Shown in pieces: positions 161 through 826 of a DNA stretch of 826 nucleotides (the stretch's first letter is position 1; every line of letters starts with the position of its first letter). A program made the translations under genes and the position numbers. This DNA comes from Escherichia coli (lineage in GTDB: Bacteria; Pseudomonadota; Gammaproteobacteria; Enterobacterales; Enterobacteriaceae), in NCBI RefSeq assembly GCF_003334815.1, contig NZ_QOWO01000117.1. One strand, written 5' to 3'. The notes under the pieces are model-generated. The model did no database searches. It was not told the origin of the DNA and worked only from the letters and a program-made list of their open reading frames with translations.

Positions 161-826
161 GTTTTTCTGTTGCGTCAGCTGTTGTTCAGCTCTGGTTAAT
201 GCATTACGGGCCGTGTTAAGCGATTCCGTCACCGAACTGAGCTTATTCCGGGCCTCTGAAATGGCCCTGTCATTCCGTGTCTGCTGCCCGAGCAGACGGG
301 CCTGTTGTGCATCAAGAACGGCAAGGGCTGCCCCGCCATTTTTTTCCAGCTCTGACAACCGGGTGTCCAGAATACCTTTTCTGCGCTCGTATTCAGCAAG
401 CATATCAGCGGCCTTCTTGTCTGCGTTCTGCGCATCCTTCTGCCGTTTTTCAGCCTGTTCGATTAACGACCTGGCCTCCCGGGGAGATATACGAAGAGAA
501 TCAGCATCAGCAAACAGCATCCGGCTCTCTGTATGCAGCCGGAGGGCGTCATATCCGGCGATTTCAGTACGGAATCCGTATTCTCTCAGCTCTGCCTGCA
601 GGAGTCTGAACTCCTGTCGTGTAATATCAGCGGCATCTGCGTTTCCGGCACGGAGTGTTTTCAGTGTGTTTTCATCTTTTTCCCTTGCAGCAATCGCCGC
701 AGAGAGGCGTTTTCCGGCTTCAGTACGCTTATTCTCATTCTCTTTCTGCTGCGCGCTGAGCGTGTTTTTGTACGCTGTGATTTCCTTGTCCCTTTTTTCG
801 ATATCACTTCGGGTTGGGGAATCATC
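2..826 (-). CDS. cia: Internal fragment (5' and 3' partial) of a colicin Ia/Ib-type pore-forming bacteriocin gene, covering the distal translocation-domain helix through the start of the receptor-binding region; about 275 of an expected ~626 codons
   Basis: Seen in sequence: reverse-complement frame starting at nt 826 is open for all 275 codons with no stop; the protein is compositionally coherent (A/E/K/R/Q/L-rich, zero Cys, zero Trp) and helix-like, which is not expected of a random open frame. Recognition: the translated peptide matches my recollection of colicin Ia essentially residue for residue (from about ...WVDDSPTRSDIEKRD... to ...AVIDNRANLNYLL...). Colicin Ib has a near-identical N-terminal portion, so Ia versus Ib cannot be decided from this window; the symbol cia is given with that caveat (cib equally possible). 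Not verified by any database search. Confidence 0.72.
161..799 (-). other. Predicted long alpha-helical / coiled-coil segment of the encoded protein (window residues ~10-222)
   Basis: Seen in sequence: continuous stretch dominated by A, E, K, R, Q, L with very few Pro/Gly and recurring hydrophobic positions (e.g. LSAAIAAREKDENTLKTLRAG, LIEQAEKRQKDAQNADKKAADMLAEYERRKGILDTRLSELEK, LNTARNALTRAEQQLTQQ). Consistent with the very long helices known for pore-forming colicins, but would also fit other coiled-coil proteins. Boundaries are approximate and based on composition only. Confidence 0.6.

Follow-up and report, generated by a model that had tools for sequence, protein, structure and literature searches.

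The described systems closest to an A7 run in a colicin gene are the mononucleotide-run indel hotspots of E. coli, the phase-variable loci of Haemophilus, Neisseria and Campylobacter, and the frameshift sites of dnaX and IS911. E. coli indel rates rise exponentially with homopolymer length (PMC8510543). In the phase-variable loci, a change in the length of a coding homopolymer turns the product off, and in dnaX and IS911 a heptamer of the X_XXY_YYZ type, A_AAA_AAG, is combined with a downstream structure.

The locus described here lies in a window of 826 nt (the whole stretch of DNA that was analysed) and behaves most like a hotspot. As at the E. coli hotspots, one-base gains and losses fall exactly at the run, deletions outnumber insertions, and changes become more frequent from A5 through A6 to A7. 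Unlike the E. coli hotspot mutation rates, the counts given below come from natural isolates and assemblies, to which selection on toxin loss and sequencing error also contribute. With the phase-variable loci of Haemophilus, Neisseria and Campylobacter it shares a coding homopolymer whose length change turns the product off, but the tract is short and the off state is rare (about 0.4%). With dnaX and IS911 it shares a heptamer in the correct phase, but the heptamer ends in AAT, there is no stimulator at the right spacing, and no meaningful -1 ORF follows. It is considered very probable that the A7 run is coding sequence of an ordinary kind within an intact colicin Ia/Ib frame and a mild passive weak point of this well-known gene.

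The colicin gene fragment and its A runs

On the minus strand, frame 1 of the window contains no stop across all 826 nt (275 codons). In a phmmer search against PDB, the 275 translated residues matched the crystallised colicin Ia (1CII_A) with E=6.8e-167 and one mismatch, and the last 56 residues matched the R-domain fragment 2HDI_B with E=6.8e-30. The sole amino-acid difference from 1CII is His304 (codon CAT, plus-strand positions 98-100), where 1CII has Asp; His304 is also present in the natural alleles examined. At the DNA level, the window is matched by 1007 PLSDB plasmids, mostly conjugative (957 of 1007) and from Escherichia and Salmonella. The best match, with 99.9% identity, is cia of the E. 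coli ECOR 3 plasmid RCS85_pII, where yagA lies upstream of the toxin gene and the colicin Ia immunity gene follows it in the opposite orientation. No substantive difference was found between the window and the cia/cib genes of IncI1, IncK, IncF and similar plasmids, and related loci share the neighbouring genes (yagA upstream). The colicin Ia/Ib immunity gene is directly downstream on the opposite strand, outside the window, in locus L007 (99.9% identical) and in L006. By this homology the gene is identified as that of colicin Ia/Ib, a Cir/TonB-dependent pore-forming colicin. The main features are as follows.

Positions 1-826, minus strand: internal fragment of the cia/cib structural gene, codons 62-336 of 626, frame open throughout.
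Positions 339-345, minus strand: A7 homopolymer, GAA AAA AAT, encoding E222-K223-N224, read from the sequence at its wild-type length.
Positions 793-798, minus strand: A6 homopolymer, GAA AAA AGG, encoding E71-K72-R73, read from the sequence as TTTTTT on the plus strand.

Most of the T domain falls within the window, as do the long helix and the R domain's first half. The C-terminal pore-forming domain lies outside the 826 nt; full-length related loci (626 aa) have it, with hits to Pfam Colicin_Ia and Colicin. The R domain comprises residues 282-385 (PMC2229546) and the C domain starts near residue 451 (PMC2230624); the A7 run, at residues 222-224, is upstream of both.

Two further observations concern the fragment itself. 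At plus-strand position 362 the window has C, a synonymous change (ACC CGG), and most homologues have G; the window allele is a minority one, matching 46 of 932 plasmids over 75 nt. The longest antisense ORF (positions 277-609, plus strand, 110 aa) is wholly within the colicin coding region, and no support was found for its status as a gene.

The preliminary description had placed a T7 on the plus strand, A7 on the coding strand, at 339-345 with the codons GAA AAA AAT, and this agrees with the sequence, in which the plus strand reads TTTTTTT with CCA on either side. It was also right about a second run of A6 at 793-798, although the codons it gave there, CGA AAA AAG, are incorrect, the actual reading being GAA AAA AGG (E-K-R). 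The length of the A7 run is no greater than expected by chance. The A content of the coding strand is 31%, and when the fragment is shuffled by mononucleotides a homopolymer of at least 7 nt arises in 21% of cases, when it is shuffled by dinucleotides in 33%, and when its synonymous codons are permuted in 53%. Under the fragment's own codon usage, E-K-N gives A7 at 339-345 42% of the time, and Lys, Glu and Asn are common in the surrounding coiled-coil region. The run is very probably a by-product of Glu-Lys-Asn written in common codons (GAA AAA AAT) in an A-rich, Lys/Glu-rich coiled-coil part of the protein.

Run length among homologues

The run length was surveyed in reference collections with short queries carrying A6 or A8, which only true variants match perfectly, and with SNP-free asymmetric flanks. 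Queries of 74-76 nt carrying A6, A7 or A8 between the window's own flanks were dropped, being confounded by the common synonymous SNP at plus-strand 362. The results for the A7 site were as follows.

PLSDB plasmids: about 940 records cover the site; A8 in one (CP059906.1) and A6 in three (NZ_CP028382.1, NZ_CP148402.1, CP121348.1).
Complete RefSeq E. coli (647 genomes): 688 records cover the site; A8 in none and A6 in two (NZ_CP028382.1, NZ_CP148402.1).
JGI/ENA metagenome contigs, scanned with a variable-gap pattern: 36 loci; A8 in none and A6 in one (L015, a 173-nt gene remnant).

A7 is therefore the length in about 99.5% of homologues (about 936 of 940 PLSDB plasmids, 686 of 688 E. coli RefSeq records and 35 of 36 metagenome loci), and in the plasmid and E. 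coli sets the other listed matches show, against the variant queries, no difference but the one-base gap that A7 should give. Tract-length polymorphism among close strains is infrequent, with 4 of about 940 plasmids, 2 of 688 E. coli records and 1 of 36 metagenome loci differing. At the A6 run of 793-798, none of 944 plasmids has A5 and one of 930 has A7. Since all homologues are at least about 98% identical, this invariance says little about selection for or against the run.

The earlier suggestion had been to compare the run with reference colicin Ia/Ib genes, agreement in length being taken to indicate ordinary coding sequence. The window carries the reference length and its frame is intact, so by that standard it is ordinary, and the expectation that the run is most likely innocuous is borne out. 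Long-read assemblies do miscall the A7 run, and the length in the window could in principle be an assembly or sequencing error, or the mark of an inactivated gene. This is extremely improbable, as the window has the A7 found in nearly all references and a frame that stays open over 275 codons with one amino-acid difference from 1CII.

The same run could also be read as a programmed element, in which A_AAA_AAT would serve either as the heptamer of a -1 ribosomal frameshift or for transcriptional slippage (for general background on the latter, see PMC5009743), giving a deliberate 232-aa product with the T domain only beside the full-length colicin. The heptamer does fit X_XXY_YYZ in the zero frame, the codons AAA AAT being preceded by A, the run is nearly invariant in homologues, and E. 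coli genes in general have fewer A7 motifs than expected (PMC4066793). However, the near-identity of all alleles accounts for the invariance, and efficient E. coli heptamers end in AAG (PMC4066793). A stimulatory structure at the usual spacing is absent, and the only hairpin that is predicted already starts within the run. For the 91-nt fold, z = -1.27 and 21 of 200 shuffles do equally well; programmed frameshifting was rejected because this downstream fold is not significant. In place of a conserved functional trans-frame extension, the -1 frame adds 9 residues (KWRGSPCRS) and then reaches TGA, and an Rfam scan of the window at E<=1 found nothing. For productive transcriptional slippage, bacteria typically require A/T runs of about 9 or more, or a run together with a nascent-RNA hairpin, and a run of 7 nt is below this length. 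Deliberate recoding at the run is accordingly regarded as highly unlikely.

Frameshift alleles at the A7 run

The products of one-base changes in the run were predicted by simulation.

Positions 312-314, minus strand: TGA stop reached after a +1 insertion (A8); 232-aa product ending in ...ELEKKWRGSPCRS.
Positions 229-231, minus strand: TGA stop reached after a -1 deletion (A6); 259-aa product ending in ...ELEKMAGQPLPFLMHNRPVCSGSRHGMTGPFQRPGISSVR.

The predicted A6 product of 259 aa contains …ELEKMAGQPLPF…. Both changes would truncate the toxin before its receptor-binding and pore-forming domains, as the preliminary description had held for any one-base change. Both also occur in nature or in deposited sequence, with CP059906.1 (QNB82641.1) as a real A8 example and NZ_CP028382.1, NZ_CP148402.1 and CP121348.1 as real A6 examples; NZ_CP028382.1 is labelled a 'frameshifted' pseudogene by RefSeq. 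The immunity gene is intact beside the frameshifted toxin genes.

The predicted products were translated and looked up as exact sequences in a collection of 15 billion proteins. A6 products were found for eight allele backgrounds, on 33, 26, 21, 12, 12, 7, 2 and 1 contigs, and A8 products on 13, 1 and 1 contigs; these contig counts have no denominator and are not counts of independent isolates, since NCBI and Logan may both hold one sample and clonal lineages inflate them. The dependence on run length was compared on one allele (ColIb-P9-like), again with exact product look-ups.

A5 runs: -1 products on 2, 6, 1, 1, 0 and 0 contigs; +1 products on 0, 0, 0 and 1 contigs.
G4/C4 runs: -1 products on 0, 2 and 1 contigs; +1 products, none found (2 tested).
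A6 run (793-798): -1 products on 17 contigs; +1 products on 2 contigs.
A7 run (339-345): -1 products on 33 contigs; +1 products on 13 contigs.

The counts climb from A5 to A6 to A7 for -1 and +1 products alike, which is what passive slippage and the published exponential rule (PMC8510543) predict. As expected of a slippage hotspot, one-base variants lie on at least four haplotypes and their frequency goes up with run length.

The deposited variants differ in their surroundings. In 4 of 10 A6 loci (GCA_012657355.1, SRR7285455, ERR15396510 and SRR32138110), A6 is the sole homopolymer indel in about 5.6 kb, while the other 6 carry 2-15 further single-base homopolymer indels and broken neighbouring genes. 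Of the 8 A8 loci, 3 have no other indel within about 5.5 kb; a fourth A8 locus differs only at a hypervariable poly-G tract, and the remaining A8 loci have further indels. Of the 4 PLSDB run-length variants, 3 carry another one-base indel elsewhere in the 1881-nt colicin gene. Extra homopolymer indels nearby are a signature of uncorrected long-read errors.

A6/A8 assemblies often show this pattern (loci L002, L004, L005, L045, L047-L049, L051, L052, L055, L057, L059 and L061), where nearby single-base indels reach up to 15 in 5.6 kb, are mostly in homopolymers and break neighbouring genes. Such indels indicate uncorrected long-read errors in plasmids deposited as 'complete'. Downstream of the immunity gene and outside the window, an intergenic G(5-10)T(3-6) tract (L006 4477-4489) also varies in length between loci, for example as G9T4, G10T3, G7T5 and G6T6.

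Clean A6 alleles occur on at least four haplotypes. Over 1300 nt, the nearest A7 relative of each is 0-2 SNPs away, whereas other A6 haplotypes are 6-22 SNPs apart; that A6 alleles are closer to A7 relatives than to one another indicates a recurrent origin. The A6/A8 calls thus appear to include both true mutations and errors, a clean context being an indirect sign of the former. The earlier statement that the run is prone to slippage and to sequencing indels accordingly holds in both parts, as real frameshift alleles and long-read assembly errors are both present in public data.

These observations are consistent with a simple course of events. The mononucleotide run is a passive weak point, liable to strand slippage at DNA replication and to homopolymer miscalls in long reads. 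Replication slippage is the probable mechanism by which A7 has become A6 or A8 in about 0.4% of natural plasmids. The toxin is thereby cut short at 259 or 232 residues, ahead of its receptor-binding and pore-forming domains, and the immunity gene is spared. Loss of toxin production may be tolerated or even favoured in carriers.

Other inactivating sites and consequences for colicin annotation

The A7 run had been singled out as the one place where a frameshift would plausibly arise. That claim does not stand, because a short repeat elsewhere in the gene suffers changes no less often, and inactivation also occurs through the A6 run, a G insertion and a nonsense codon.

Positions 653-674, minus strand: imperfect 11-nt tandem duplication, TGAAAACACAC followed by TGAAAACACTC on the coding strand, read from the sequence; gene nt 336-357.

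Loss or gain of one unit of this repeat shifts the frame. Its one-copy form was found in 5 of about 940 plasmids, compared with 4 of about 940 carrying A7 variants, and its products were found on 64 contigs (unit lost) and 18 contigs (unit gained), against 33 and 13 for the A7 run on the same allele. Two of the 36 metagenome loci show a change at the repeat, L022 (-11) and L026 (+11). The 11-nt tandem repeat is the most often hit frameshift site among those tested in the gene region. Tandem Repeats Finder reported nothing in the window, since two copies score below its threshold. A query with three copies was uninformative, as two overlapping pieces of the normal two-copy locus were joined into a '100%' match.

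Inactivation by other lesions is also on record. The split colicin gene of CP082567.1 (Salmonella Kentucky) at first resembled a slip in the A7 run and proved to be a G insertion in CAGGCCC at about plus-strand position 303 (locus L001, position 3025). The nonsense allele R131* (DIT-stop, with A121V; protein P0085), at about plus-strand positions 617-619 of the window, is present on 53 contigs and is another recurrent or clonal route to toxin inactivation. One widespread remnant, internal to the colicin gene, has its end at about gene nt 808 (L015 361-394; L022; protein P0018); it includes an ORF of 75 aa that was found on 256 contigs, E. coli O121:H7 being one source. The remnant retains the run, which is A6 in L015. 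The literature searched for colicin Ia/Ib frameshift alleles yielded only frameshifts of the receptor gene cirA and plasmids without a colicin locus, and nothing on the A7 run.

With these sites in hand, it can be asked whether the run has been selected as a reversible on/off switch of colicin production, moving cells between producer and immune non-producer. A6 and A8 alleles do recur across several haplotypes whose immunity gene is intact, and the gene has another out-of-frame repeat, the 11-nt tandem, that is also hit recurrently. On the other hand, few alleles are off (about 0.3-0.4%), a phase-variable locus would be expected to have a longer tract than 7, and the gradient from A5 to A7 is the one that passive slippage predicts. 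Several frameshifted colicin genes carry second lesions, and irreversible lesions (the nonsense codon, the G insertion and the gene remnants) inactivate the gene as well, which argues for plain loss of function rather than switching. A selected switch is therefore judged very unlikely, chiefly on the rarity of the off alleles and the shortness of the tract. The related proposal, that the A7 run and the out-of-frame 11-nt repeat 310 nt upstream in the gene are kept together as a cheap, partly reversible off-switch that spares immunity, is given a similarly small chance; if it were true, immune non-producing 'cheaters' would exist within plasmid-bearing populations.

For the ordinary coding homopolymer favoured here, the consequences fall mainly on annotation. 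The window itself is little affected, being an intact fragment with its run at the reference length. In the annotation of colicin Ia/Ib plasmids, most 'frameshifted' calls come from plus-strand positions 339-345 (A7), 793-798 (A6) and 653-674 (the 11-nt repeat), and in assemblies made from long reads only, such calls need a check against the reads before the gene is declared a pseudogene. Because real A6 and A8 alleles exist at about 0.4%, the presence of a cia/cib sequence on a plasmid does not by itself imply that colicin is produced.
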